DNA from: a virus
Taxonomy: Duplodnaviria > Heunggongvirae > Uroviricota > Caudoviricetes
DNA length: 36,325 nt
Direction: 5' to 3' (one strand)
Virus record (IMG/VR): IMGVR_UViG_2711768053_000014
Coordinates: 1-36,325 of that record
Shown: piece by piece, positions 1 to 36,325 of the stretch
How the letters are laid out: each line of letters opens with the position of its first letter
Numbering within the stretch: position 1 is the first letter of the stretch
Made by a program: the position numbers and the translations under genes
Notes under the pieces: generated by a model
What the model was told of the DNA's origin: nothing
Databases searched by the model: none
Seen by the model: only the letters and a program-made list of their open reading frames with translations

Positions 1-707
1 ACTCTGAATAGCTTGGTGTTTAGGCGCTTTTTTGCGCGCTTATTCAGGAATCTGATGTAGCGATACTGATTAAATTTGTGTACCACGGCCCGCTCCTTAT
101 TAGCCCGTAAATACTCGCCTCGTTGTCCTCCGCGCTTAATCGCGTTCATCGTTATCTCGTGATACCACTCGCCGTCCAGTTCGTAGAACTTGCTTTCGTG
201 GCTGCCTATAAAATCAAAATTCGACGCCTGATATACCACGCCAGCACGTCCGCAGCGTTCGTCTGCAAAGGACTGAACCCACTCCACTGACGGGTACAGT
301 AACCTGATGGTTTTCAGCGCGTAGCTGATGGCCCGTGATTCAGAGTTGCGGGGCATGTCGTCGTGTAGCCACATGCGGTTCAGTTCCATATAGCCCCGGT
401 TATCCGTTTCAAGCACGACCCGACGCCCTGAGTTGGGGTTAAGGGCATATCCCCACTGAAGAACGCCAACCAGATCACGTCCGCTGAATACGCCCAGATG
501 CAGGTAGGAGTTATTCACAAAACGGCGGGAATAGTGCTTTGTCTGAATGATTGTGCGGGCCAGCCAGCAGGATATGGTTTCAACGCGCAGCTCCTTTGAA
601 CCATAGCCGACAATCCGGTCTTCATACTCAATAACGCAGGGTTTTGTCAGAATGCGTGATTTCTTCTCTTTTCCCACAATACAGCTCCGTGGGATGCTCT
701 TTGGCAT
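1..707 (-). CDS. mom: DNA modification protein Mom (partial, C-terminus beyond window start)
   Basis: Open frame with no stop from the ATG at 707 to the window edge (not in ORF track because no stop in window); translation ...[51 protein letters not shown]... reads as Mu Mom; overlaps the 3-prime end of com in another frame as in Mu. Exact start uncertain (ATG at 707 or a downstream alternative start). Confidence 0.8.
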
Positions 708-813
708 TCGATATGACAATGTAACGTTTACAGCGAGGGCATTTAATTTCTATATGCTTAAAACCTCCTTTAAACAGTAATTTATTGCAGTTTTTACAGC
801 GAACAGAGTCCAT
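628..813 (-). CDS. com: Com, zinc-finger translational activator of mom
   Basis: ORF track 628..840; CxxC...CxxC motif ([10 protein letters not shown]...IKCPRCKRY) and close resemblance to Mu Com; the second in-frame ATG (813) has an AGGGGGA Shine-Dalgarno and gives 61 aa, close to the ~62 aa I recall for Mu Com; sits directly upstream of and overlapping mom. Confidence 0.8.
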
Positions 814-840
814 GATTCCCCCTGTGTAATAATCAGACAT

Positions 841-936
841 GAGCGCCCGGAGGGCTGGGGGTATTTAATCACAACCGATGCAAACCGACGATCGATATGA
901 TGCTATCGATCGTCATAAACTATACAAACTGATTAT
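841..936 (-). promoter_or_regulatory. Candidate mom-operon promoter/regulatory region with Dam-site inverted repeat
   Basis: Intergenic between the chaperone stop (937) and com; perfect 11-bp inverted repeat GACGATCGATA-(6 nt)-TATCGATCGTC at ~887..914 holding two GATC sites. Mu's mom promoter is regulated through upstream GATC methylation (established knowledge); assignment here is by position and motif only. Confidence 0.5.
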
Positions 937-1512
937 TTAATCACCGACAGTTAACGCTCTCACCTCGTCCAGTATGGACAGCCGGGAAAGCTGCTCCTTC
1001 ATTTCACGCTGGCGCTGATAAATCCCGTCATTGCGATCGAGCTGCGCCTGCGCCATTGCTACCGCCAGTTCTTCCAGTTCCGACATTGACAGTTTCACCT
1101 GTTGATTATTGGCGTCACCCCACGCAAGGGCGGTTCTTGCCGTATCGGATTTCGCCGCCATTACTACCGGATAAAGACGGGCCAGTGAGTCGGGGCCAGC
1201 ATTCCAGGGGCGGCCGTTCCATTCGAACGTGAACGGCTGCGCCTCCTGTTCTGTGCGCCACGCCTCGATTTCCATCTTTTTGGCATCTTTTGCCGCTGCG
1301 ATAAGTTCAGGCGTGACTGTAAACGGGGCGATTTCACCCCATTTGCCGCTCTGTAACTCTTCCCAGATGCGCTGGCCTGTCATTGCGGTATCATCCTGCA
1401 TGGCGGTATACGGGACGAATTCCGTTTCACCTTCAAATAACACCTCGCAGTCAACCGCACCATTTTCGAGATAATGGGCATTTCTGATGCCTTTTATCGC
1501 TCTGATTTTCAT
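937..1512 (-). CDS. Putative tail fibre assembly/chaperone protein (by position downstream of fibre gene)
   Basis: 191-aa ORF immediately downstream of the 1035-aa fibre gene; no recognisable similarity to lambda Tfa from memory, so the call rests on synteny. Confidence 0.4.
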   Translation of the reverse strand: MKIRAIKGIRNAHYLENGAVDCEVLFEGETEFVPYTAMQDDTAMTGQRIWEELQSGKWGEIAPFTVTPELIAAAKDAKKMEIEAWRTEQEAQPFTFEWNGRPWNAGPDSLARLYPVVMAAKSDTARTALAWGDANNQQVKLSMSELEELAVAMAQAQLDRNDGIYQRQREMKEQLSRLSILDEVRALTVGD

Positions 1513-1526
1513 GTCTTATTTCCCCG

Positions 1527-4500
1527 TTACTCGATACGCACAAAAAGACCAATATAGCCACGTTTTGTATCGTGATTACTGCGTGACCCCGAAAGCGCCA
1601 TATAACGACCGGGAAAGTTGTATGCACTGGCACCACCAATTGCCACTTGCGGTGTGGATACGTATGTCCCTGTATCGCTAACTGAAGCACTCATAGCCAG
1701 AGGGCCAAGACGGGAACCCGGCACAATATCACCGAGTCCCAGAGACACATCAGCACCAAAACTTTCCCCCTGATATGCCGCCATAACCGGCACACCAACT
1801 GCCGGATATTTGTAATATGAGCCTGAGCCTGCTGTCCGGGAGAGTAAGAACGCCAGCGAATCGCCGTCGTAAATGACAGGGCTTACTGTTGCATTCCAGT
1901 TGTTTCCACTCCAGCGGTAAGTCAGGCGATGAATGCTGTGTTCGCCTTCGTAATACTGGTTAAAACACAGCAACGTTTTGAATTTACGCGTTGTGTCCGA
2001 TTCATCGTTATCAAAGGGCGACCACATCACATCAATGATGCCGTTAAATTTCGTGGTGCCAGCCAGCAGCGTGGAAGAGTCCGCAATACTGACCGCATAA
2101 CGCCCCGGGGTGGCCTCTTTCAGCCATTCAGCAAAATCAGCCTGTCCGGTAAATGTCAGGGCGTCGGTGCTGGCAAATGCCTGACCGAATCCGTACATGC
2201 CGGACAGTGCCAGTCTGCCCGGCGTGCGGTCGCGGATATCGCTCTGGGGTTCCATCGTAGCAGCCGCTTTCAGTTCAAGCTCCGTGCGCATGGCTTCAGG
2301 TGTGTCCAGTGCCAGTAATGCGCGGGCTTTTTCTGACAACTGCGCCAGTAAAATCCTGCCATCTGCACTGAAATAAGGCAGTGTATTTTCTTCCGGTGTT
2401 ATCTGGCTGACAGCCGTTAACACGTCATTAAGCGGCTGTTTACCTGCCAGTGCATTAGTGACGGTTGTCGCAAAGTTCGGGTCATTGCCCAGTGCCGATG
2501 CCAGCTCGTTCAGTGTGTCCAGGGCTTCCGGTGATGAGCCAACCAGCGCGGCAAGCAGTTTGCGGACAAACTCCGCATTGGCTATTTCATTACCTGCTGC
2601 ATCATCCGGTGGTGTTGGCGTGGACGGCGTTCCGGTCAGTGCCGGGCTGTTCAGTGGCGCGCGGGTTTCAATCAGTGCCCGGAGTGAAGCCTCGTTGACT
2701 TTCAGGTTTTCCCAGCCAACCAGATAACCATCTCCGGTAGTCCAGTAGCGATTGTAATAAATATGGCCGTTAATACCGTAAAAAATAATGATTTTGGCCA
2801 CATATGCCGGATTGGGATTGGGTTGAGATTCCGGCCAGATAATTTCAACGGTACCCTTGAACAGCACGCCCTGTATTACCGCATTTGTATCTGCATAAAC
2901 GGCATAGCGTCCGGGTTTTGCCGTTTTTACCCAGCGGAGAAAATCGGCCTCTGTTTTAAACTCGGTCCTGTCGCCGCTGGAAAATACTTTCCCGAATCCA
3001 AACATGCCGGGAATCGCCAGTCGACCTTCGGTGCGGTCGTAAATATTCTCCTGTGCATCCTTCTGTGCTGCATTGCCAAGTTGTAGCGTCAGATTCGTCC
3101 AGGTGACCGGGGCGGAGATATTATCGCCACGAACGGTCATGAGAATCCGTCCGTCTTTTCCAAAAAACAGAACCAGCTTTGTTGCTGTCTGGCTTGTTTT
3201 GTCGCCCCAGCCATTATCCAGCCAGATAATTTCTGTTATTCCGGTCGTCTCTTCCGTTTGTGTGGAAAAGGTGTAATACCGTCCCGGGTGCAGGTTGTGC
3301 GCAGTTCTGGCTACAGTCGCCATATCGCTGGCAATAATTGAACGCGCTCCGGCGTCCGTCATTCCGTAACCAAATGCACCAGGCAGCGCAACACGGCCTT
3401 CCGAGCTGTCGTAAAGGTCTGTCTGAATGTCCCTTACCGCTGCGCTTTTCAGCTCAAGCTCATTGCGCATGGTTTCCACTGTGGCCTGTGCCAGCAGTGA
3501 CCGGGCTTTTTCTGACAGTGGAGACAGTGAAGCATTTCCGTCCTGATTAAAGCACAGAAGATTATCTGCCCGTTCTTCCAGATTACTGATTGCGGTTAAC
3601 ACGTCACTGAGTGGTTGTTTACCCGCCAGCGCGTTAATGACCGTCGTCGAAAAGTTCGGATCATTGCCCAGCGCAGCTGCCAGCTCGTTCAGTGTGTCCA
3701 GGGTTTCCGGTGACGAGTCAACCAGTGCGGCGAGCAGTTTGCGGACAAATGCCGCGTTCGCTGTTTCCAGACCGGCAGCATCGTCCGGTGGAGTTGGTGT
3801 GGTGGGCGTACCTGTGAACGCCGGACTGTCCAGCGGCGCTTTTGTTTTCGTCTCGTCCATGACGGTTTTAACAGCCTTTGGTGTGGCTGCCAGTTCTTCG
3901 CTGTCGTTGTCTGTATCACTACAGAGTTGCACCAGGCCTTTTTCTGTTGTGGATGCATTGCTTCCCTTCAGGTCATCAACTATCCGTTGCGCCTCGTCCC
4001 TGTGCTGTTTCGCGTTCTGTTCGCTTTTTGCTGCCGCTTCGGCGCTGGCTTTTGCCTCGCCGGTCAGCGTTGCGGCATCAGCAAGTTTATCGACCGCTTT
4101 CTGGACTATCTTATCGGCATCTTTGACCGCCTGTTCTGCCCGGGCGGCATTCTGGTTTGTTTCAGAGGCCAGCTCTTCAGCTTTCTGCACATTACCCGCA
4201 ATTTCTTCTGCATCCTGCCGTATTTCCCCTGCGAGGGTTTCTGTATCCTGGCGGGCCTGTTCAGCAGCGTCCGCGTGCTCTCCGGCTTTTTCTGCGCTTT
4301 GCTGCGCCTGTTGCGCCAGTTCCTCGAATTTCTTCAGGGCTTCCGGGCGCAGGTCAATATCGGTTGCGCCCAGAAAATCATTCAGCGAACCATCCGCTGA
4401 ATCTTCATAAACGCGGATGACACCGATTTCTGAAAGGCGCTGTGTGCTTTGTGTCAGGCGAACGCTGTACACACCCGGCAGAACGGGGAAGTCATATTCC

Positions 4501-4634
4501 CCGTTCTGTGTGGTGACATGGCTGAAAACACTTTTCAGAATCCCTGCACGGTTGTGCAGGGAGGTCAGTGTAATGGTTGCGCCGCCCAGCGGTTCTCCCG
4601 TGGGCGTTTTAATCACACCTTTAAGCTGCGGCAT
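1527..4634 (-). CDS. Side-tail-fibre-like protein (lambda Stf family), 1035 aa, with internal duplication
   Basis: N-terminus (...IRVYEDSADGSLNDFL...) and the collar block (KGLVQLCSDTDNDSEELAATPKAVKTVMDETKTKAPLDSPAFTGTP...LDTLNELAAALGNDPNFSTTVINALAGKQP) resemble lambda Stf as I recall it; the collar block occurs twice in the protein (about aa 255-345 and 630-715). Confidence 0.8.
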   Translation of the reverse strand: MPQLKGVIKTPTGEPLGGATITLTSLHNRAGILKSVFSHVTTQNGEYDFPVLPGVYSVRLTQSTQRLSEIGVIRVYEDSADGSLNDFLGATDIDLRPEALKKFEELAQQAQQSAEKAGEHADAAEQARQDTETLAGEIRQDAEEIAGNVQKAEELASETNQNAARAEQAVKDADKIVQKAVDKLADAATLTGEAKASAEAAAKSEQNAKQHRDEAQRIVDDLKGSNASTTEKGLVQLCSDTDNDSEELAATPKAVKTVMDETKTKAPLDSPAFTGTPTTPTPPDDAAGLETANAAFVRKLLAALVDSSPETLDTLNELAAALGNDPNFSTTVINALAGKQPLSDVLTAISNLEERADNLLCFNQDGNASLSPLSEKARSLLAQATVETMRNELELKSAAVRDIQTDLYDSSEGRVALPGAFGYGMTDAGARSIIASDMATVARTAHNLHPGRYYTFSTQTEETTGITEIIWLDNGWGDKTSQTATKLVLFFGKDGRILMTVRGDNISAPVTWTNLTLQLGNAAQKDAQENIYDRTEGRLAIPGMFGFGKVFSSGDRTEFKTEADFLRWVKTAKPGRYAVYADTNAVIQGVLFKGTVEIIWPESQPNPNPAYVAKIIIFYGINGHIYYNRYWTTGDGYLVGWENLKVNEASLRALIETRAPLNSPALTGTPSTPTPPDDAAGNEIANAEFVRKLLAALVGSSPEALDTLNELASALGNDPNFATTVTNALAGKQPLNDVLTAVSQITPEENTLPYFSADGRILLAQLSEKARALLALDTPEAMRTELELKAAATMEPQSDIRDRTPGRLALSGMYGFGQAFASTDALTFTGQADFAEWLKEATPGRYAVSIADSSTLLAGTTKFNGIIDVMWSPFDNDESDTTRKFKTLLCFNQYYEGEHSIHRLTYRWSGNNWNATVSPVIYDGDSLAFLLSRTAGSGSYYKYPAVGVPVMAAYQGESFGADVSLGLGDIVPGSRLGPLAMSASVSDTGTYVSTPQVAIGGASAYNFPGRYMALSGSRSNHDTKRGYIGLFVRIE
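2400..2680. repeat. Intragenic direct repeat copy A (~270 bp) within the Stf-like gene
   Basis: About 85-90% identical by eye to 3585..3860; both encode the APL(D/N)SPA(F/L)TGTP...NELA(A/S)ALGNDPNF...ALAGKQP segment; the paired plus-strand artefact ORFs 2458..2727 and 3637..4410 start with near-identical peptides. Confidence 0.7.
3585..3860. repeat. Intragenic direct repeat copy B (~270 bp) within the Stf-like gene
   Basis: See copy A (2400..2680). Confidence 0.7.
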
Positions 4635-5187
4635 CGGGACGCTCCGGCCAGTTGATGGAGTAAAAGGAGGCTTCGTCAGTAACGGTGCTTAAATCCAGTG
4701 CCTTTACCGCTTTGATATATGCCATCCACTGCGTAAGACGGGCTTTATCATCGTCGCTGATGGTGCCCAGCTCCAGCTCGGTTTTCCAGTCGGAGGTGAT
4801 GTCCTTCGCTTCATTCAGCATGCTCTGGCGTTTTTTTTCTGCCAGTCGCGAGTAATCAACAGGAACCGGCAGCACTTCGCCGTCTTTGTAATACCAGCAG
4901 GCTTCAATGCCAAAACCTTCCGGCAGTTCATCCACTTCCACAATGGTGAAGCCAGCCGGATAAAGACGGGACACGTCTTCCGCCATTGAATAAATCACGC
5001 CGCTTTCAGGGTGAATACACAATTTGTATTTCTTCGTGAATTTATCCAGTGATTCATAAAAATCCTGTCCGTCTTCACTGCGGAAATACTGAATATCCTT
5101 ACCATAAGGCATATTTTCCGGGTAATAACGCGTGACGTTTCTGAGTTCCATTATTTTCTCCTTAATTAACCTGATACGGTGCGCCAT
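4621..5187 (-). CDS. Tail fibre assembly protein (Tfa / Mu U-like)
   Basis: 188-aa ORF directly after a fibre gene, with a Tfa-like C-terminal region (...DKARLTQWMAYIKAVKALDLSTV...WPERP); true start may be the internal Met at ~5151 just after the upstream stop. Confidence 0.7.
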   Translation of the reverse strand: MAHRIRLIKEKIMELRNVTRYYPENMPYGKDIQYFRSEDGQDFYESLDKFTKKYKLCIHPESGVIYSMAEDVSRLYPAGFTIVEVDELPEGFGIEACWYYKDGEVLPVPVDYSRLAEKKRQSMLNEAKDITSDWKTELELGTISDDDKARLTQWMAYIKAVKALDLSTVTDEASFYSINWPERPDAAA

Positions 5188-5975
5188 GAACCATTGATAT
5201 AAATCTGCGCGGATTTGTAATACACACCACCGATGTTATCCGCCGAACTTCTCCCCGTATCCTGGACATAAATTCCTGACAACTGACAGCCGGAAGGCGC
5301 GCGAAACGTCCAGGTGATTTCGTTGCCACCGGGATTGTGAAACACCTCATTGGTGTACTGAAAATTACGCACAGCGCCGGAATCTGTGGTGTTGATGGTG
5401 ATATCGCTGGTGCCATCAAACAGCACATTGTTAATCCTGCGGGCCGTCTGAAGCCGGGTTGCCGTTCCGGCGTTGCCACTGATGTTGCTGATGGTGATAT
5501 CCGAAGACAGGGCCATGCCGTTGACCCTGCGGGTATTCGGTACAGCACTATTAGCTTTATTTACCGTGTCACGTAATAAAAGCGCGTCGATAATTTCACC
5601 GGCTGTGTTTTTCCCGAGAATACCGCGCACAAAAGCACTGAGCGGCGTTAATGCCATTGTGTCTTCGCCGGTAAAGTACGGGAATGTATTATTCTGACCG
5701 GTTAATCCGGCAATAGCACTGGCTGAACCACTGTTCGTAATAAACAGTTTTTTCAGCGCCGTCATAATCTGGTTGGTGGTATTTTTATCCGGTTTGATAT
5801 TTGCCTGCCGGAGAATTTCCAGCAGTTCAGACTGAATAATATTAAACCAGTCCGGCCCCGGATAAGTGGGCGGAATACCATTCCCGCCTTCGGTGAAATA
5901 AAGCGTTGTTTTGCTTAATTCAGCCGCGACAGGTGGCATTACCGGCACACCCGTCGGATTATCCACATGAAACAT
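5166..5975 (-). CDS. Tail fibre protein (short, Mu S-like position)
   Basis: 269-aa ORF between the baseplate genes and a Tfa-type chaperone; Ser/Thr/Gly/Asn-rich fibre-like composition (...DITISNISGNAGTATRLQTARRINNVLFDGTSDITINTTDSG...). Confidence 0.6.
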   Translation of the reverse strand: MFHVDNPTGVPVMPPVAAELSKTTLYFTEGGNGIPPTYPGPDWFNIIQSELLEILRQANIKPDKNTTNQIMTALKKLFITNSGSASAIAGLTGQNNTFPYFTGEDTMALTPLSAFVRGILGKNTAGEIIDALLLRDTVNKANSAVPNTRRVNGMALSSDITISNISGNAGTATRLQTARRINNVLFDGTSDITINTTDSGAVRNFQYTNEVFHNPGGNEITWTFRAPSGCQLSGIYVQDTGRSSADNIGGVYYKSAQIYINGSWRTVSG

Positions 5976-5978
5976 AAA

Positions 5979-6563
5979 CTATTCTCCGGTGTAATAATAT
6001 TCATATTCCGTGCCCGCCAGTCGGTAATGCTTCAGCAGGCATTCCAGCTCGCGGGTGCGTTCGCTGATTAATGGCGTCATGACGTCATCAATACAGGTAA
6101 ACCGTCCGGCATCTTTGTCCGGGACTTCCACTTTCAGCAGCCAGCGATACCGCGCCGGATGCAGCGGGTACATGCAGTCACGCAGGCAGTGGTGCGGCAG
6201 AACGGCCGTCACCTTAATGGTGAAGCCCAGCGCCGCCGCAGCGGCTTCAATCTGCCAGGTTGCCAGCCCACCCTTGCGGCGGTATTTCTCCACCACGGCC
6301 CGGCGGCGGGCTTCCGTTGTGGTGGCGGCAATTCCGCATTCCGGCAGCGCCAGATATTGCTCCCACTCCGGCAGCAGCTGGAGCGTGGTTTCCGGTCGCA
6401 TCTCCACATGCAGGCGCGAGGCGTCGTATTCAACGCGGGTTAAACGCTCTGCAAGCGCCCTTAAAAAACGGTTTAAATCTGCATCGTTATCACGCGGCCA
6501 TGCCTTACCCCGTGGCATGACCTGTTGCAGTGCGGTCAGCCATTCCGTCACGCTGTGAGCCAT
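5979..6563 (-). CDS. Tail/baseplate protein (Mu gp48-like)
   Basis: 194-aa ORF in a tightly packed minus-strand operon between the baseplate J-like gene and the fibre gene; Mu gp48-like by position. Confidence 0.6.
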   Translation of the reverse strand: MAHSVTEWLTALQQVMPRGKAWPRDNDADLNRFLRALAERLTRVEYDASRLHVEMRPETTLQLLPEWEQYLALPECGIAATTTEARRRAVVEKYRRKGGLATWQIEAAAAALGFTIKVTAVLPHHCLRDCMYPLHPARYRWLLKVEVPDKDAGRFTCIDDVMTPLISERTRELECLLKHYRLAGTEYEYYYTGE

Positions 6564-7624
6564 GTCACCTCCCCGATGGTGATAAGCTCATCCACATCAC
6601 TGGTGGTGTCTTCCCCGATGTTGAGGAAGTAATCCGTGATACCGGACGTCATACCGATGGCCGTGCGCAGCGAGGACACCGGCAGCATCTGACCGGGGGC
6701 CAGCGTTTTCTGTAATGCGGTCAGGTTTGCCCGGACGGCGTTCCTGTTCGCCTGGCTGTCCGGTGTCAGACGGATGGACAGATCGACTTTCTTCAGCCTG
6801 ACCTGTACCGGCCAGACCTCGATGCCGCCCGGTTTGCCCACCATCACGCCCGTGGCCGGGTGTTTGTGACAGAACAGATACTGCTCCATTGTCTTCAGGT
6901 CGTCCCGTGTGGGGATAATGTCTTCACGGTCATCATAAAGCCATGCCAGCCCGATCGTGCCGGGGCCGTGCCACGCATCCCACGCCCACGCGCGGCTGAC
7001 GCCCGGCACTTCACGCGCCCAGATGACGTAATCATGTAGTGCACCGCCCACCGGGGGATTGCGGCGCACATACAGCAGACGGTCCAGCAGCTCTGCGATG
7101 GATTCGATGTCTGCGCCACCGGTGATGCCACTTTCAGTCACCGCGCCGGTGCTGCCCGTTCCGGGTAGCGGGGACAACAGAGTGAGCACGGCACCGGCAG
7201 CAAGATTGCCCGCCACACCGGCTTCTTCAGCCTGCACGATGACGGTGACCTCGCCGTCCTGTACCTCGCCGGATGTGAGTACCTGATACACCTGATTCGT
7301 GTCGGACTGCATCCGGGTTTCTGCCGGAATGGGGGACTGACTGGTGAAGGTCACCGGCCCGCTGGCAAAGGTGGCCTGCTTGCGGATAACCCCTTCATAC
7401 GTTGCTGTTTTGATAATGGTTTCATCATCAGACATGGTGGACGGGATTATCTGGTCCTTAATCCAGCTCTGATGGTCGTATAAATCCCGGACCTGACTGC
7501 TGAATGACACGTTCAGCGCCTGCTCAATACTGACAGGCGGCAGCTTTTGCAGGCCGAGTTCATACGCAATATCTTTTTCGCCGTCGGCAATCAGTTTGCC
7601 CAGCGTGGGGATTTCATACGGCAT
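6548..7624 (-). CDS. Baseplate J-like protein (Mu gp47-like)
   Basis: ORF track 6548..7657; size, position and operon context fit a baseplate J-family protein; start trimmed to the internal Met at 7624, which reduces overlap with the upstream gene. Confidence 0.7.
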   Translation of the reverse strand: MPYEIPTLGKLIADGEKDIAYELGLQKLPPVSIEQALNVSFSSQVRDLYDHQSWIKDQIIPSTMSDDETIIKTATYEGVIRKQATFASGPVTFTSQSPIPAETRMQSDTNQVYQVLTSGEVQDGEVTVIVQAEEAGVAGNLAAGAVLTLLSPLPGTGSTGAVTESGITGGADIESIAELLDRLLYVRRNPPVGGALHDYVIWAREVPGVSRAWAWDAWHGPGTIGLAWLYDDREDIIPTRDDLKTMEQYLFCHKHPATGVMVGKPGGIEVWPVQVRLKKVDLSIRLTPDSQANRNAVRANLTALQKTLAPGQMLPVSSLRTAIGMTSGITDYFLNIGEDTTSDVDELITIGEVTWLTA

Positions 7625-8066
7625 TAATGGTGGCCTCCCATCGGCGGGTGATTTCAATTGTGAGCGTGGTTTTGTCCGGGCGGGTTAACACCACCTGAAA
7701 GGCAATACGGTCAGGGACGATGATGCTGGCCGTGACGGTGGCGTTACGGGCGTAACCGGCCCGCAGCAGCGGTTGCATGGACAGCCGCGCGTAATCTTCC
7801 ACACGCAGGCGGACATCTTCCGTCAGCTTTTCACGCTCAAGCAGCCACAGGCGGGAACCCCACGAAAAATCGCTGTACGTGTCGCCCGGCCAGCCGCGCG
7901 GGTCGCCAGAGCCGTCAGGAATGACATCATCGTCATCAGCACGGGCATCGGTGAAAAGGCAGATAAGAACCTGAGTGACCAGCCCCTCATCCAGTGAGAG
8001 GCCGTTATGGGTGACGGTGATGTCACCCCGTGAGAGCATGTTATTCCAGCGGATTCCTGTCGTCAT
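7614..8066 (-). CDS. Baseplate protein (Mu gp46-like)
   Basis: 150-aa ORF with overlapping stop/start coupling to its neighbours inside the baseplate cluster. Confidence 0.65.
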   Translation of the reverse strand: MTTGIRWNNMLSRGDITVTHNGLSLDEGLVTQVLICLFTDARADDDDVIPDGSGDPRGWPGDTYSDFSWGSRLWLLEREKLTEDVRLRVEDYARLSMQPLLRAGYARNATVTASIIVPDRIAFQVVLTRPDKTTLTIEITRRWEATINAV

Positions 8067-8599
8067 ACGGGCGGTGATGTATTCTCATTGTCGCCGTCCT
8101 TATGAATGTGTTCGATGAATGATTTACCGTTGATTCTGACATCTTCAGTAAATTCACAGGGACCGACGAATTTCATTTGTTTACCGATAATATTCAGCAA
8201 TTCGTCGGCGGTGAGATTTACCGTTTTCCCTGAAAAGTTTAATTGTTCTCCTGTGATTTCAATAATTCCGCCTTTCCTTAACGTGATATGTGATTTGCCG
8301 TCCTGGTGATACAGCCGGACGTCGCCGGTGGACAAGCCTTTAGGGCGACATCGCTTATCCTCCACCGCGATGGCAACCAGCCCGTCACGCCGTCCGCCCA
8401 CGGCCAGCACGATGGCTTCTGAACCTTCCGGCGGAACGGAAGTAAACCCGTAATTCTGGAAGCGCTCCACATCGTCATCAGTGGCATCTGCCAGCGTCTG
8501 GATTTGCAGGTTCTGTCGCTCCAGACTGTCAGACACCATGCGGACAATGGCACGGTCAACCATCAGCCGCAGACGGCGGGCAATGGCGTTTAATCCCAT
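8063..8599 (-). CDS. Baseplate assembly/spike protein V-like (Mu gp45-like)
   Basis: 178-aa ORF, position and size fit a gpV-type baseplate spike. Confidence 0.65.
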   Translation of the reverse strand: MGLNAIARRLRLMVDRAIVRMVSDSLERQNLQIQTLADATDDDVERFQNYGFTSVPPEGSEAIVLAVGGRRDGLVAIAVEDKRCRPKGLSTGDVRLYHQDGKSHITLRKGGIIEITGEQLNFSGKTVNLTADELLNIIGKQMKFVGPCEFTEDVRINGKSFIEHIHKDGDNENTSPPV

Positions 8600-9660
8600 G
8601 TGGCCACCGCCTTTGTTTTCTTCGTCTTCGCTTTCATTTCCGGCATATCCAGTGATTCAGGTGGAACCAGCGCCAGAACCGTCATCCGCCCCTGTGCGCC
8701 ATCCGTCCAGGTCACCCCGGATATCAGCCAGGTGGTTTTCAGGTTCTGAATACTGTCATCAATATCAACAAGGCGGTTGGTCTGCCACAGCGGGCCGCTG
8801 TCGCCCTGTTCGCGCCAGCCTGCCACCGTGATTTCCGTCGTGCGGGCCTCTCCCAGCATCCGGGCCTTGTACCATTCCCCGCGAATGCTGGCCCCGCCCA
8901 CGGTCAGGCTGTCTTCATTAACCAGAATGCGCGGGCGGTAACGGTTAATTTCCGGGTCTTCGACGATGTACTGGCGACCGCCCACCATCGAGGCAGGCTG
9001 GCTGTCCCACAGTTTGCCACCGGCACTGGTGGTGCCTTTGATGATGTACTGGCTGTTACGCTCCCGCCAGCTGAAGCGCCCACGGGCAGCGAGGATATTT
9101 TTCCCCAGCACCAGTGACACACCCGCGCGAACGGAAGAGGCGCGGGTGATAATCAGGTTACCCGCCCCGTCAGACGTCAGCAGAACGCCGCGCTGTTTTG
9201 CCAGCCGGTCGAGCAGTTCAAACCCCGTTTCACCCTGTTCCAGAACGACGGACGCAAACGCCTCCCCGGTCGGGGTTTCCGTGATGACGGTTATCCCGAA
9301 CGGGCGGCAGACATCAGCCGCCACCTGTTCAAGCCGCACGCCTTTCCATTTCCCGGACGAATGCACCACAGAGCAGTCCACCAGGTCACCGGTTTTGTCG
9401 CGCCCCATGACACGAATCTCCACGTTATCTGCGTCATAGCTGGGAATAAAATCATCGATATACCCCGTCAGCACGGTATCCGCGCCCAGCCTGACTGTGC
9501 AGGGTTGCCCCTCACGAATCACGCGCGGTGCCGCCGCTGACCAGCGGGTTGTCACACTGAGTTCAAATTCACCGGCAATCGCCTTCAGGGAACGACTGAC
9601 GGACATTTCCGTCCAGCCTTCCCACAATTTGCCGTCAACGGTAAGAATCACGGATCCCAT
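8590..9660 (-). CDS. Tail/baseplate hub protein P (Mu gp44-like)
   Basis: 356-aa ORF immediately downstream of the N-like gene (ATGA-type overlap); Mu gene P-like by synteny and size. Confidence 0.7.
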   Translation of the reverse strand: MGSVILTVDGKLWEGWTEMSVSRSLKAIAGEFELSVTTRWSAAAPRVIREGQPCTVRLGADTVLTGYIDDFIPSYDADNVEIRVMGRDKTGDLVDCSVVHSSGKWKGVRLEQVAADVCRPFGITVITETPTGEAFASVVLEQGETGFELLDRLAKQRGVLLTSDGAGNLIITRASSVRAGVSLVLGKNILAARGRFSWRERNSQYIIKGTTSAGGKLWDSQPASMVGGRQYIVEDPEINRYRPRILVNEDSLTVGGASIRGEWYKARMLGEARTTEITVAGWREQGDSGPLWQTNRLVDIDDSIQNLKTTWLISGVTWTDGAQGRMTVLALVPPESLDMPEMKAKTKKTKAVATWD

Positions 9661-15122: not shown

Positions 15123-15341
15123 TTACTTCCTCTTTCGTTTCTGGTTTTTGGTTTCAGGACGGGATGTTTCTGCCGGAACATCAGCAATCACCACATCCCC
15201 CTCGGCTTCACGACGTCGCCAGTACGCCCCGACGTCGAGACGTTCCCCTTCCGGGGATAAATGCGCGCCATCCGGTTTACGGACACGGAGGTTTTCCCGC
15301 GCTGGCTTAATCAGTTTCTGTTCCATCGTCACCCCGTACAT
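15123..15341 (-). CDS. Small hypothetical protein upstream of sheath gene
   Basis: 72-aa ORF packed between the gp38-like and sheath genes; basic C-terminus; no recognisable motif. Confidence 0.35.
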   Translation of the reverse strand: MYGVTMEQKLIKPARENLRVRKPDGAHLSPEGERLDVGAYWRRREAEGDVVIADVPAETSRPETKNQKRKRK

Positions 15342-15918
15342 GGATCACGTCGTTAATTTCAGTGTGTTCACCGCTACGCAGCGTTGCCCCGAGGCGCAGG
15401 AAGTCCGGGAGCGCGGCGAGATCAATCTCTTCATCCAGCTGAAATTCCTGCTCCCACGTCACCGCCCACATGGTGACGCCCAGCCCGTCGAGGCTGGCGG
15501 AGTAAATGTTGTCTGCCCGCACATCAGCAGCCATGCGTTCAGCCCCCATGCCCCCGGTAGAATCCGACGACAACAGGCGTTTGATCACCTTCCCGGCCAG
15601 CACTTCACAGCGCACGTCGCGGGAATACCCCCACGAATCCGTCGCCATGATGTAAGCCACCCAGGTGACCAGACCGGACAGCCCGCCGCGCGGGTTAATA
15701 TCCCGGACGCGCAGGGCAGCTACCCGGATACAGCCGGTGCGACCGGACAGATAGCGTTTCACTTCATCGGGGCTGTTGAACTGGCCGATGTGACGCTCCA
15801 CCACGTCGGCCCGGTCAGGGGTTTTCCCCTGAAGCGCTGTTTTCAGCCAGGCCACAATGCGCTCTGCGGCCGCAACGGTGCTCCCCGGTGTGCGCAGTTC
15901 AGGGCGTTGTTCTGTCAT
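15307..15918 (-). CDS. Neck/tail completion protein (Mu gp38-like)
   Basis: 203-aa ORF in the head-tail joining cluster between the head and sheath genes. Confidence 0.55.
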   Translation of the reverse strand: MTEQRPELRTPGSTVAAAERIVAWLKTALQGKTPDRADVVERHIGQFNSPDEVKRYLSGRTGCIRVAALRVRDINPRGGLSGLVTWVAYIMATDSWGYSRDVRCEVLAGKVIKRLLSSDSTGGMGAERMAADVRADNIYSASLDGLGVTMWAVTWEQEFQLDEEIDLAALPDFLRLGATLRSGEHTEINDVIHVRGDDGTETD

Positions 15919-16460
15919 GGCAGAACCTCCTTCCAGAAATGACTGATAACCTGTTGCAGCTCCTGCTGATTGGCAGAAGACAGCCCCAGAAATTCACGTT
16001 GCGGAATGTTCATCATGCGGTTATGTGCGCCGACGGTCTGCCAGACCGGATATTTCAGCGCCCGCCCGAAACACTGCGAGATAAGCCGTTTGTGGGCGCT
16101 GACCGGCACACTGCCGGAAAAGCCGTCATTCATGATGCGGGCATAATCCAGCGGTGAACCGATACGCACCACGCGGTTTTCCACGATGTACTGGATACTC
16201 TCCAGCAGATGGCCTTCACCACGCAGCAGGCTCTGGTTGCCGTGGCGGGTCTTTTTGTACCCGTCAGACCAGTCCGGCCAGCGTTCGCCACCCGGACTGG
16301 TTTTCTCATCGATGATGCGGCGGCGGGTCTGTGATTCCACCACCGCACCGATGCTTTCCAGCAGCTCTGCCTGCAATGAACCATCTGCCAGCTTTTCAAC
16401 GGCGCGGCGGATATCCTCCAGACGCTGGTCACCGCTGACCTGTACAGAAATCCCCATCAC
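15915..16460 (-). CDS. Virion morphogenesis protein (Mu gp37/G family-like)
   Basis: 181-aa ORF, ATGA-type coupling to neighbours, in the head-tail joining cluster. Confidence 0.55.
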   Translation of the reverse strand: MMGISVQVSGDQRLEDIRRAVEKLADGSLQAELLESIGAVVESQTRRRIIDEKTSPGGERWPDWSDGYKKTRHGNQSLLRGEGHLLESIQYIVENRVVRIGSPLDYARIMNDGFSGSVPVSAHKRLISQCFGRALKYPVWQTVGAHNRMMNIPQREFLGLSSANQQELQQVISHFWKEVLP

Positions 16461-16894
16461 AGCACCCCTTTCAGGTTGTTACGGGTGAACAGCCGGGCAT
16501 TGGCACCCACCACAATGATTTTCCCGTGGTCGGTTTCTGCCGGGGTGGCATACGTCGGCAGGCCCAGATCACGGGTGCCGTTCGCCATCTCACGCAGGGT
16601 TTTAATGGCGTCGTCGTAGCGTTTCTGGATCAGCTCCGTGATTTGATTGTCACGCTCTGACAACCAGTAAAACGCCAGCGATACCGCCACGCGTTGCAGC
16701 GGGCGCGGGATTTCCGTCACTCCCAGCGGCAGCTGGTAGCGGCGGGACAGAAACGAATCAATTTCCGCTTCGGCATCACTGATGGCCTGACGGATTTTGT
16801 CTTCATCCAGTTCGTTGGTTTCCCGGTTAATCGCCATGTTCCAGACAAGATTGCCGTCCGCGCGTAACAGGTCTTCCTGCGTGATATACCCCAT
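16457..16894 (-). CDS. Head-tail joining protein (Mu gp36-like)
   Basis: 145-aa ORF in the head-tail joining cluster. Confidence 0.55.
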   Translation of the reverse strand: MGYITQEDLLRADGNLVWNMAINRETNELDEDKIRQAISDAEAEIDSFLSRRYQLPLGVTEIPRPLQRVAVSLAFYWLSERDNQITELIQKRYDDAIKTLREMANGTRDLGLPTYATPAETDHGKIIVVGANARLFTRNNLKGVL

Positions 16895-17205
16895 CAGCCT
16901 TTCTCCGTTTCCCGGACAATCAGATTCGGCTCTGCCATCAGGCGGGTGGCAACCGCAGCGGTCACCGCCACATCCTCACCGGCATGTGACCAGAAACGGC
17001 CACAGCGCCAGAACCCGTTTTCAGACACGGCCCGGACGTTAAGCCGGACAGGGGCGTCACCCTGTACAGTAACCGGGTCTTCAGCCGGACGTGGTTCATT
17101 CGCCTGACCGTCAGCCACAATAACGTCTGCCAGCGGTGCCGGGTTTTCCTGTTCAGCGCTGTTCTTTGCGGCTTTCGCGCCTTTGGTTCCTGCTTTTTCA
17201 CTCAT
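16894..17205 (-). CDS. Hypothetical head-associated protein (Mu gp35 position)
   Basis: 103-aa ORF directly downstream of the major head gene, preceded by an 18-bp palindrome. Confidence 0.45.
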   Translation of the reverse strand: MSEKAGTKGAKAAKNSAEQENPAPLADVIVADGQANEPRPAEDPVTVQGDAPVRLNVRAVSENGFWRCGRFWSHAGEDVAVTAAVATRLMAEPNLIVRETEKG

Positions 17206-19369: not shown

Positions 19370-20191
19370 TTACTCACTGTCAAAACGGGCCTGTTTTGTC
19401 GCCAGCTGGCGCGCCAGCGCCTGCTCACGGTTTATGCCGGGATTGTAGTTCCAGCCCGGATCAATCCCTTCCGGCACATCTTCCTCTTCGCCCGTGCGTT
19501 TGTTCACCCAGCGGACAGTTCTGATTTCCGGCGCTTCGGTATGAATGGTGCCCTGTGCCGCCAGTTGCGCATACTCACCACGGCTGACCTGACGAATGGT
19601 GCATTTGCAGCCCCAGCCGTTAGGGGCAAAATGTGTCTGCCAGAACGGGTGATCTACCGGCAGACACAGACGCGCCCATTTCACATGCTCCGCCCGGTGC
19701 TCGCGGGATGGCCCCAGCTCGTAAATCAGATACGGCATGGCCCGCTTTGTCCGTTGAATGCGTTCCCACTGGCCCGCCGCGCGGGCAGTGCGCATGTTGG
19801 TGTCAAAAATCGTGCGGAGGCGGCGGTCGCTGCCCAGTTGCACGGTGCGGGTTTCACCCGTCAGCGGATCATCCATCTCCTGTATGCCCCACCATCCGCG
19901 TTTTATCAGCAGTGGTTGCAGCGCCTCCCGGAACTCACTGAACGTCTGCCCGCTTTGCAGGGCGTCTTCCACAAGGGCTTTCACATCCGACAACAAATCC
20001 AGTTGCAGCATTTTTGCCACGGTGAAGCTGTTCCGGTGTTCTTCCCGCCACACATCCCGGTAATCAAAACCGGGGCGCAGCTTCTTCGCCTTCAGCCACG
20101 CCAGCGCCTCTTTCGGGATGAGGGTTTCACGCATGACCGGTATCTCCCAGCGCACGGGCCTTAAAGCACACCTCCGCCAGTTGCAGGGCAA
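19370..20191 (-). CDS. F: Head morphogenesis protein F (Mu F-like)
   Basis: 273-aa ORF immediately downstream of the portal gene; an alternative start at the internal Met (~20134) would reduce overlap with the portal gene. Confidence 0.7.
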   Translation of the reverse strand: MPCNWRRCALRPVRWEIPVMRETLIPKEALAWLKAKKLRPGFDYRDVWREEHRNSFTVAKMLQLDLLSDVKALVEDALQSGQTFSEFREALQPLLIKRGWWGIQEMDDPLTGETRTVQLGSDRRLRTIFDTNMRTARAAGQWERIQRTKRAMPYLIYELGPSREHRAEHVKWARLCLPVDHPFWQTHFAPNGWGCKCTIRQVSRGEYAQLAAQGTIHTEAPEIRTVRWVNKRTGEEEDVPEGIDPGWNYNPGINREQALARQLATKQARFDSE

Positions 20192-35299: not shown

Positions 35300-35490
35300 T
35301 GATGTGTGAATTAATCGCTTTTCGTATCTTTAATGAAACAAAAGCCATTTCTACCAATCTTTCGCGTTTCAAGGCTTAACGGCTAAAATCTGCTCTACAG
35401 GCTTGCAAGCCCCATCAAATCTAATCCCGTCAAATCCCGAATAATCCAATGTCCTCCCGGTTTTTTTCGTACTTCTTGTGAATCAATACA
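35300..35490 (-). repeat. Mu left-end terminal region with transposase binding sites (L1 and L2/L3-like)
   Basis: Minus-strand terminus TGTATTGATTCACAAGAAGTACGAAAA (L1) at ~35464..35490; internal sites TGTTTCATTAAAGATACGAAAAG (~35321..35345) and TGAAACGCGAAAG (~35363..35377) fit the MuA site pattern TTTCA...CGAAA; host DNA starts at ~35491 (gcagg...). Confidence 0.85.
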
Positions 35491-35578: not shown

Positions 35579-36325
35579 ATGGAACAAGCGCATACCCAGC
35601 TGATTGCCCAACTGAACGAGCGTATTTTAGCGGCGGATAACACGCCGCTTTATATTAAGTTTGCCGAAACGGTAAAAAATGCCGTGCGCAGCGGGGTGCT
35701 GGAGCATGGCAATATTTTGCCCGGTGAGCGTGATTTAAGTCAGTTAACCGGCGTTTCGCGCATTACGGTGCGCAAGGCGATGCAGGCGCTGGAAGAAGAG
35801 GGTGTGGTGACGCGTTCGCGCGGTTACGGCACGCAGATCAACAACATCTTCGAATACTCGTTGAAAGAAGCGCGAGGTTTTTCTCAGCAGGTGGTATTGC
35901 GCGGGAAAAAGCCCGATACGCTATGGGTTAACAAGCGTGTCGTGAAATGTCCCGAAGAAGTCGCGCAGCAGCTGGCGGTCGAAGCAGGAAGTGATGTCTT
36001 TTTGCTTAAGCGTATTCGCTATGTCGATGAAGAAGCGGTATCGATTGAGGAATCGTGGGTTCCGGCGCATTTAATTCATGATGTTGATGCCATCGGGATT
36101 TCACTTTATGACTATTTCCGCAGCCAGCACATTTACCCACAACGTACGCGTTCCCGCGTTAGCGCCCGGATGCCGGATGCCGAGTTTCAGTCACATATTC
36201 AGTTAGATAGCAAAATACCGGTGCTGGTGATCAAGCAAGTGGCGCTTGACCAACAGCAACGGCCTATTGAGTACAGCATTAGCCACTGTCGCAGCGATCT
36301 ATACGTTTTTGTGTGCGAGGAGTAG
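35579..36325 (+). CDS. yegW: GntR/HutC-family transcriptional regulator (host gene), yegW-like
   Basis: 248-aa ORF with an N-terminal GntR-type HTH (...ERDLSQLTGVSRITVRKAMQALEEEGVV...) and a C-terminal effector-binding domain; outside the prophage end; symbol from memory of E. coli YegW (248 aa), not verified. Confidence 0.6.
   Translation: MEQAHTQLIAQLNERILAADNTPLYIKFAETVKNAVRSGVLEHGNILPGERDLSQLTGVSRITVRKAMQALEEEGVVTRSRGYGTQINNIFEYSLKEARGFSQQVVLRGKKPDTLWVNKRVVKCPEEVAQQLAVEAGSDVFLLKRIRYVDEEAVSIEESWVPAHLIHDVDAIGISLYDYFRSQHIYPQRTRSRVSARMPDAEFQSHIQLDSKIPVLVIKQVALDQQQRPIEYSISHCRSDLYVFVCEE

Follow-up and report, generated by a model that had tools for sequence, protein, structure and literature searches.

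Two directly oriented fibre–chaperone pairs with different predicted anchors in a Mu-like prophage without a G-segment switch

For host-range switching by inversion of DNA, the G segment of phage Mu serves as the textbook case. Which fibre genes occupy its position in a Mu-type prophage without such a switch, and how the encoded fibres may be used, are the questions raised by the locus described here. It is contained in positions 1 to 36,325 of IMG/VR virus record IMGVR_UViG_2711768053_000014; this stretch of 36,325 nucleotides (nt), hereafter called the window, represents, in reverse orientation, an almost complete transposable prophage of the Mu type according to PHROG and Pfam scans. In Mu, D108 and SfMu the G segment (S-U-U'-S'-gin) is located after gp48 and before com-mom. 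At the same position of the window, between a gp48-like gene and com/mom, four intact open reading frames (ORFs) on the minus strand fill positions 937–5975 and encode proteins of 269, 188, 1035 and 191 amino acids (aa), which we call F1, T1, F2 and T2. As proposed in an initial annotation made from the sequence alone, they correspond to an S-like fibre, a Tfa/U-like chaperone, a long fibre and a second putative chaperone, placed before com. Judged by their predicted domains both fibre–chaperone pairs are complete. We consider it probable that they represent two functional fibre sets which are made together, have different anchors and are not subject to switching.

All elements of a Mu-type switch were searched for. 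A tblastn search of the whole window with Mu Gin gave a best E value of 1.1, and all ORFs of at least 100 aa in positions 1–8000 are otherwise assigned, leaving none as a recombinase candidate. Among the other large ORFs, MuA and MuB are the sole recombination proteins found in PHROG scans; the transposition genes match phrog_310 (E 2e-199) and phrog_296 (E 4e-115). The back-translated invertase motif GY(V/I)RVST matched only Mu and SfMu among 42 loci. No inverted repeat in positions 1–8000 was above chance, the longest pair being 26 nt at 73%, and comparison of positions 1–9000 with their own reverse complement (blastn) yielded only three short local palindromes. Plus-strand copies of the four fibre and chaperone proteins were not detected by tblastn. 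Likewise, the complete gix site had no match even when three mismatches were allowed, and the gix core AAACCNNGGTTT is absent from positions 1–8000; a single match with one mismatch, located in a head gene, corresponds to chance level. As a positive control, the core AAACCNNGGTTT finds exactly the two annotated boundaries of the G segment in Mu, and the switch tests gave positive results for both Mu and SfMu. A gin gene, gix sites and an inverted module are thus all lacking in the window, which does not carry a switch of the Mu type. The initial annotation had claimed the absence of gin or any other recombinase and of inverted fibre copies, and it is borne out on both points.

F1 (5166–5975, minus strand) is a short S-type tail fibre (phrog_1833, E 2e-106) for which an N-terminal baseplate anchor (approximately residues 1–100), a short shaft and a Tfa-dependent tip can be discerned. 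Residues 1–100 are 44% identical to residues 1–100 of Mu S, and residues 1–81 match Mu S in Protein Data Bank (PDB) entries 5yvq and 9ki1 (phmmer, E 7e-20). In Mu, the N-terminus of gp49 (S) docks on a loop of the wedge protein gp48, and each baseplate bears six trimers (PMC11915804). The gene directly upstream of F1 (5979–6563, minus strand) encodes a homologue of this wedge protein (BW3, YmfQ family; PF10076 Phage_Mu_Gp48, 111 bits), which is presumed to be the docking platform of F1. Hence, F1 carries an S-type N-terminal domain of the gp48-docking kind, and docking itself is predicted. Over its entire length, the C-terminal stretch of 58 aa in F1 matches the C-terminus of the short tail fibre of phiTE (9cuy, E 1e-13). 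The tip shares the motif APSG...INGSWR with Mu S and resembles the tips of Mu S/S' and of L54 of phage phiP27. The idea that F1 is a truncated remnant of S was rejected because the protein matches phrog_1833 and the phiTE fibre up to its C-terminus and its relatives comprise 259–269 aa. By sequence, F1 is a complete short S-type fibre. T1 (4621–5151, minus strand) is a Tfa of the Mu U/U' type (PF02413 Caudo_TAP, 73.5 bits; PDB 5yvq_B, E 2e-15) that is 24–30% identical to Mu U/U' over the full length. Its ORF (4621–5187) encodes 188 aa; the true start is probably the ATG at 5151, which is preceded by AAGGAG and yields a protein of 176 aa, the length annotated in relatives. With this start the apparent 22-nt overlap with F1 disappears.

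F2 (1527–4634, minus strand) has an anchor of its own that is unrelated to that of S. Its N-terminal collar or anchor domain (StfN, residues 1–130, encoded by 4245–4634 on the minus strand) belongs to PF08400 phage_tail_N (91.4 bits; cut-off 26.6) and is followed by an alanine-rich coiled coil, a Phage_fiber_2 repeat (PF03406, 56 bits) and an internal duplication; the proximal part carries fibre repeats of the Stf/P2-H type. Stf of Ur-lambda shares with F2 the PF08400 collar and the subsequent coiled coil and Phage_fiber_2 repeats. Identity with lambda Stf amounts to about 50% in pieces, and similarity ends near residue 775. F2 is 65% identical to tail3 of Rac-SA53 over its full length, its C-terminal 235 aa share 28% identity with the C-terminal end of phiP27 L56, and as a whole it is a mosaic with Rac-SA53, SerU and lambdoid stf genes. 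The description of the 1035-aa fibre as lambda-Stf-like in the initial annotation therefore holds up to about residue 775 and fails for the distal part, since the tip and the chaperone are, as far as can be deduced from their sequences, of the DUF4376 class and not of the Tfa class. T2 (937–1512, minus strand; phrog_1141, E 1e-86), whose suggested role as a second chaperone agrees with our results, contains DUF4376 (PF14301) at residues 73–177 (59.3 bits; cut-off 25), and its gene shares about 85% nucleotide identity with phiP27 L57. The DUF4376 proteins V22 gp27 and A5 gp9 were shown by experiment to be fibre chaperones or transient caps (PMC7289586, PMC10579305), and T2 is assigned by sequence to this class, which folds or caps such tips. 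In lambda, by contrast, the tail is non-contractile and the tip needs a Caudo_TAP Tfa. The tail encoded in the window is contractile because a sheath (phrog_165, E 1e-193) and a Mu-type baseplate are encoded.

The anchor of F2 could be related to proteins of known structure. In phmmer searches StfN matched the collar spike of XM1 (7kjk, E 1e-11) and StfN of Ur-lambda (9e7m, E 1e-9). An AF2 model of StfN (pLDDT 84) was compared with the PDB using Foldseek, and the sole significant matches were four fibre anchors, namely 9e7m (E 2e-6, TMt 0.85, rmsd 2.2), 7kjk (E 1e-6, TM 0.67), the neck fibre of A-1(L) (8keg, E 5e-4, TM 0.55) and a chain of 9d93, the tail-tip model of Bxb1, in which the chain matched by sequence carries the name tail collar fibre gp4. 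The internal duplication of F2 (2265–2660 for the second copy and 3443–3839 for its partner, minus strand) consists of 254 nt at 82% identity plus 75 nt at 81% identity; the copies are in frame at a distance of 1179 nt (393 codons). Both encode the collar-like motif PL(D/N)SPA(F/L)TGTP...NELA(A/S)ALGNDPNF, and the protein contains three similar knob-like segments. Unequal recombination at these repeats could alter the length of the fibre by one module. The strongest local hairpin in positions 1–9000, a 19-nt inverted repeat with 84% complementarity and a 6-nt loop (4472–4515, E 0.004), lies within the StfN coding sequence.

The four genes are closely spaced. Three nt separate the gp48 stop codon from the F1 start, and 96 nt lie between the end of T2 and the com ORF. 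In between, the T1 and F2 genes share 14 nt, and a gap of likewise 14 nt separates F2 from T2. A start codon and a Shine-Dalgarno sequence are present for each of the four genes, and each fibre has its own N-terminal anchor domain. No internal promoter or terminator signals above chance were found in positions 600–6700, where the scan was at or below shuffle expectation and hence uninformative. Downstream follow com (628–813, with an ORF to 840; minus strand; PF10122; phrog_13819, E 7e-43), which is about 90% identical to com of Mu, D108 and SfMu at the nucleotide level, and mom (1–707, minus strand; PF25680, 249 bits), whose 3' end is cut by the window edge and whose coordinates were mapped from the relative in Escherichia coli ETEC1732 (L001). 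The mom regulatory intergenic region (841–936, minus strand) contains a palindrome with GATC (887–914) that starts about 22 nt past the T2 stop codon. When this region was aligned to the Mu sequence comprising the gin 3' end and the region upstream of com, the ACGATCGA...ATCGATCG elements turned out to be conserved. In Mu these dyad elements overlap the 3' end of gin, whereas in the window they follow T2; there are two GATC sites in the region upstream of mom as compared with three in Mu.

Are both pairs likely to be functional? The ratio dN/dS was determined for the window and the 94%-identical prophage of strain ETEC1732, i.e. for a single pair. F2 differs at 266 positions (153 synonymous and 113 non-synonymous) over 1035 codons without stops, which gives a dN/dS of 0.215. 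The values for T2, T1 and F1 are 0.21, 0.31 and 0.50, respectively, and those for gp46–gp48 are at most 0.08. At least in this pair F2 and T2 are under purifying selection. The initial annotation had asked whether one of the fibre genes is a pseudogene remnant of an inverted copy; with intact fibres and a dN/dS of about 0.21 for F2 and T2 this is not what we found. Gene order and strand are the same in all five sampled E. coli prophages. Moreover, 31 IMG/VR loci were found with gp48 and surveyed with degenerate DNA motifs instead of BLAST, and the StfN motif occurs on the same strand in all 19 loci of the lineage with enough downstream sequence. The comparison with other Mu-like prophages that had been suggested thus showed the layout to be kept within the lineage. 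Because both pairs are complete, tightly packed on one strand, under purifying selection and conserved in layout, simultaneous production of two fibre types, as envisaged by the initial annotation, is the best-supported reading.

The lineage was found in 46–57 of 5426 complete E. coli genomes (about 1%) at 94–96% identity, mostly in isolates from animals and in Shiga toxin-producing (STEC) and enterotoxigenic (ETEC) strains, and its insertion sites vary, with flhA and mdtO being interrupted in two relatives. Within the lineage StfN is 88–96% conserved, whereas the distal parts vary. The distance from StfN to com ranges from 1865 to 3719 nt and falls into at least eight size classes, the length of F2 varying about 2.5-fold; only 495 nt were found in the decayed IMG/VR locus L023 and in strain 54214. 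A constant StfN combined with a variable StfN-to-com distance is what would be expected if an anchor specific to the chassis carried a tip that can be exchanged. F2 has 1037 aa in ETEC1732 and 535 aa in UMNF18, and it is pseudogenised in XJ34. In STEC719 (L006, 2435–5161) it is broken up into four reading frames, namely one for StfN by itself (301 aa), one of 100 aa, one for a GDSL/SGNH hydrolase (456 aa) and one of 50 aa, which suggests, by sequence, an adaptor with an enzymatic (esterase) receptor-binding protein instead of a long fibre. In the variant represented by strain 54214 (L009, 2587–6365) and by L023, F2 is cut to its anchor and T2 is lost. This variant also has a gp48 homologue lengthened to 324 aa and, before F1, an additional protein of 352 aa that belongs to no known family. 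Strain STEC388 (NZ_CP041425) yielded five separate matches to the structural region, which may be several copies or fragments resulting from transposition; one of the fibre modules carries an IS66 insertion. A protein homologue search with StfN retrieved only partial proteins of 66–202 aa, as assemblies break at this position, and a search of genome contigs for gp48 retrieved only two Raoultella loci, both at contig ends, a number insufficient for a census.

Mu-like prophages without gin also form a sister lineage (L031, L035 and L039; L039 9585–14505), whose gp48 is 59–63% identical. This lineage likewise encodes two different fibres in direct orientation, of 251 aa (with a Collar domain) and 737–790 aa, with a 294-aa Tfa between the fibre genes. 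Both are S-type anchored, each anchor being 51% identical to residues 1–77 of F1. Judged from these anchors, both fibres would depend on one set of docking sites on gp48 and would compete for them.

Does the module descend from a G segment? The initial annotation had described it as a replacement of Mu's switch, and for F1 and T1, with their S anchor and U-type Tfa, a counterpart in the G segment exists. F2, however, is not equivalent to S': the window has neither an inverted Sv'/U' nor a constant part (Sc) shared between the fibres, F2 possesses a collar anchor, and its chaperone is not a Tfa. In addition, the guanine plus cytosine (GC) content of the fibre module is 46–56% as compared with 59% for the baseplate genes, with an abrupt onset at the gp48/F1 junction. 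The fibre module is compositionally foreign and the prophage is a mosaic. Descent from the G segment is thus not supported.

The same layout is found in phages of other types. In the Stx2e phage phiP27 (NC_003356) the same four genes follow Mu-type baseplate genes on one strand, L54 encoding a fibre, L55 a Tfa, L56 an StfN fibre and L57 a DUF4376-type protein, and tail1–tail4 of Rac-SA53 have the same order. Unlike the prophage in the window, phiP27 (attR) and Rac-SA53 (attB site) are not Mu-type transposable phages. F1 is barely related to L54, and the StfN fibres differ in length (490 aa in L56, 1061 aa in tail3, 1035 aa in F2). StfN of the lineage is 42–44% identical to the version of phiP27 and Rac-SA53. 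No functional study was found in the literature on phiP27 tail fibres or gin-less Mu-like E. coli prophages; the 'P27' of PMC12502783 is an unrelated podovirus and not phiP27. Prophage Sp18 of E. coli O157 Sakai resembles the one in the window in being Mu-like and transposable with a com/mom-like right end, but it retains a DNA invertase, an inverted Tfa and a fibre remnant, i.e. the Mu solution in a partly decayed state.

Taking these data together, we propose that this region makes up the distal part of the late tail operon and would provide two receptor-binding fibres at once without a DNA switch. Six trimers of F1 would be positioned on the six gp48 loops of a simple baseplate, like S in Mu, and F1 would be the baseplate fibre coupling receptor binding to contraction. 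T1 is predicted to fold the F1 tip and may remain bound. Because F1 would fill the six gp48 loops, F2 needs another site; it would be unable to use the gp48 site and would be held by a ring of collar domains elsewhere on the particle. We consider F2 most likely to be an accessory fibre that is attached elsewhere than at the docking site of the baseplate fibre. The neck (adaptor/terminator region) would be the most probable location, a placement that we nevertheless regard as tentative. It is inferred from the fact that, in the two contractile-tailed phages of solved structure that possess the StfN fold, neck fibres are anchored by it: in myovirus XM1 six gp40 collar-spike trimers bind to the neck (PMC10457771), and in myovirus A-1(L) gp82N hooks neck fibres onto the neck (PMC10966104). 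The anchors of XM1 gp40 and A-1(L) gp82, N-terminal domains of the Ig/transthyretin-like kind, are homologous or structurally similar to that of F2, and like the phage studied here both viruses have contractile tails, XM1 being by description a simple contractile injection machine; the distal parts of their fibres are unrelated to F2. In lambda, a collar of 12 such domains surrounds the gpV/gpM junction and bears four side fibres, which speed adsorption via OmpC (PMC12617516). A site of the lambda type is unlikely here because the corresponding tube ring in Mu lies under the sheath and wedges (PMC11915804). At the neck F2 would serve as a long accessory fibre for the first, reversible capture of the cell, like lambda Stf, and its distal part would be freely exchanged among relatives. 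An extra neck protein marking a docking site was not found in the window, whose neck set is that of Mu with a relocated G-like gene; this gives no clue either way.

Several observations weigh against this model. The fibre sets of this prophage, of phiP27 and of Rac-SA53 are known from genes alone. There are only two myovirus precedents for a neck location, and the structural match to A-1(L) is weak. The StfN motif YEDSxxGxLNDFL is nearer to the tail-tip version of lambda than to the neck version of XM1, and the F2 gene, located beside the baseplate and fibre genes and overlapping T1, fits a baseplate-proximal site too. Moreover, the dN/dS values come from one pair of prophages, and F2 or T2 is decayed or truncated in XJ34, strain 54214 and L023; F2 may be dispensable or may be the first gene lost in prophage decay.

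Some of these points would be accounted for if both fibres were on the virion with F2 at or near the baseplate, the collar ring being seated on the baseplate-proximal tail or on F1/T1, gp47 or gp48 so that a branched or double crown results, like those of Sf14, phiTE and A-1(L). The F2 gene directly follows the baseplate fibre pair, its anchor motif is closest to that of the lambda tail tip, and simple Mu-like baseplates can bear two fibre types (Sf14, PMC11821841; phiTE, PMC11972413; A-1(L), PMC10966104). The Shigella phage Sf14 is a precedent for two fibre types together on such a baseplate (PMC11821841), but it is virulent and its fibres lack chaperones and an StfN anchor. In fact, no solved two-fibre baseplate uses an StfN domain, and the four structural matches of StfN grip rings of the neck or tube type. 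Given that the tube/initiator ring of Mu is covered by sheath and wedges, and that the variation in F2 length is hard to fit with a geometrically constrained trigger fibre, we regard a baseplate-proximal F2 as the main, though on balance unlikely, alternative. Somewhat more doubtful still appears the fixed dual host range put forward in the initial annotation, in which two alternative, independently sufficient receptor binders would substitute for G(+)/G(-) phase variation. Two complete pairs of receptor-binding protein and chaperone without a switch would be compatible with it, and the two S-anchored direct fibres of the sister lineage resemble a constitutive choice of Sc+Sv and Sc+Sv'. F2, however, does not share the baseplate anchor and so is unlikely to trigger the baseplate alone, and its best-studied homologue, lambda Stf, is an accessory fibre that serves on the very host bound by the primary binder J (PMC12617516). 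Dual host range is one possibility, but it was overstated, since the analogy to lambda Stf and the neck-fibre fold make cooperative adsorption at least as likely.

It is also conceivable, yet improbable, that F2 and T2 are passenger DNA from a lambdoid or phiP27-like prophage that is not assembled into the particle, only F1/T1 being at work. The deviating composition of the fibre module, the mosaic relationship of F2 to Rac-SA53, SerU and lambdoid stf genes, and its truncation or pseudogenisation in several relatives would be expected in this case, but a dN/dS of about 0.2 for F2 and T2 and the presence of StfN in all informative relatives would not. That StfN is kept within the lineage and has diverged from the phiP27/Rac-SA53 version argues instead for adaptation to the chassis. 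We attach very little probability to a cryptic switch, operated either by a host invertase of the Din family such as Pin or through changes in F2 length at its internal direct repeats. Recombination between the in-frame repeats could indeed delete or duplicate a 393-aa module, although sequences of 81–82% identity are poor substrates for frequent homologous recombination. As to inversion, the fibre region has neither a gix-like core nor a full site, despite a test that detects both Mu sites, nor an inverted repeat above chance, and there are no inverted coding modules which could be brought into frame.

The remainder of the prophage is collinear with Mu, as judged from PHROG and Pfam matches: repressor, MuA, MuB, lysis, terminase, portal, protease, major head, neck, sheath and tube genes are followed by those for tape measure, N, P and gp45–gp48, the fibre region, com and mom. 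A Mu attL sequence with two mismatches (35464–35490) marks the prophage boundary, and beyond it a host gene for a GntR/UTRA-family regulator (35579–36325) runs off the window. DNA identity to Mu, D108 and SfMu reaches 88–90% in the early region (about 27–32 kb) and in com/mom, whereas no similarity to these phages is detectable for the structural genes at this DNA level. The head and tail genes are without a close match in the phage collection, the best being Klebsiella phage Kp4866-3 (72%). The GC content is 55–61% in the structural genes, 43–53% in the early region and 47–54% in the first 6 kb, which comprise mom, com and the fibre module. The neck region (15307–17205) has an order unlike that of Mu in that a Phage_tail_S-like (Mu G-like) gene (15915–16460) is placed between a gp36-like gene (16457–16894) and a gp37-like gene (15307–15918); upstream of the protease gene, unlike in Mu, there is no G-like gene. 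An ORF similar to gp30 (F) (19370–20191) has a TTG start and encodes 273 aa, as compared with 439 aa for its Mu counterpart.

The arrangement described here is not unique; it is already present in the records of phiP27 and Rac-SA53 and is routinely annotated in E. coli. As the module is found in public phage records, our contribution consists in its interpretation. Close relatives of Mu, as defined by the DNA identity of the early region and com/mom, do without the G-segment switch. Where a lambda-type collar domain is anchored on a contractile tail is a modest but real structural question. We tentatively suggest, with less confidence than we have in the two fibre sets themselves, that the lambda-type anchor may be a portable collar adaptor for non-contractile as well as contractile tails, which would mount long exchangeable fibres on the neck here and on phiP27-like phages. 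Each particle would then combine a conserved short fibre set at the baseplate with a hypervariable set at the neck, a constitutive alternative to phase-variable tropism that is undescribed for Mu-like phages. If F2 is indeed located at the neck, side fibres of the lambda type would be interchangeable accessories across tail morphotypes, and this would be relevant to the prediction of host range from prophage sequences and to fibre-swap engineering.

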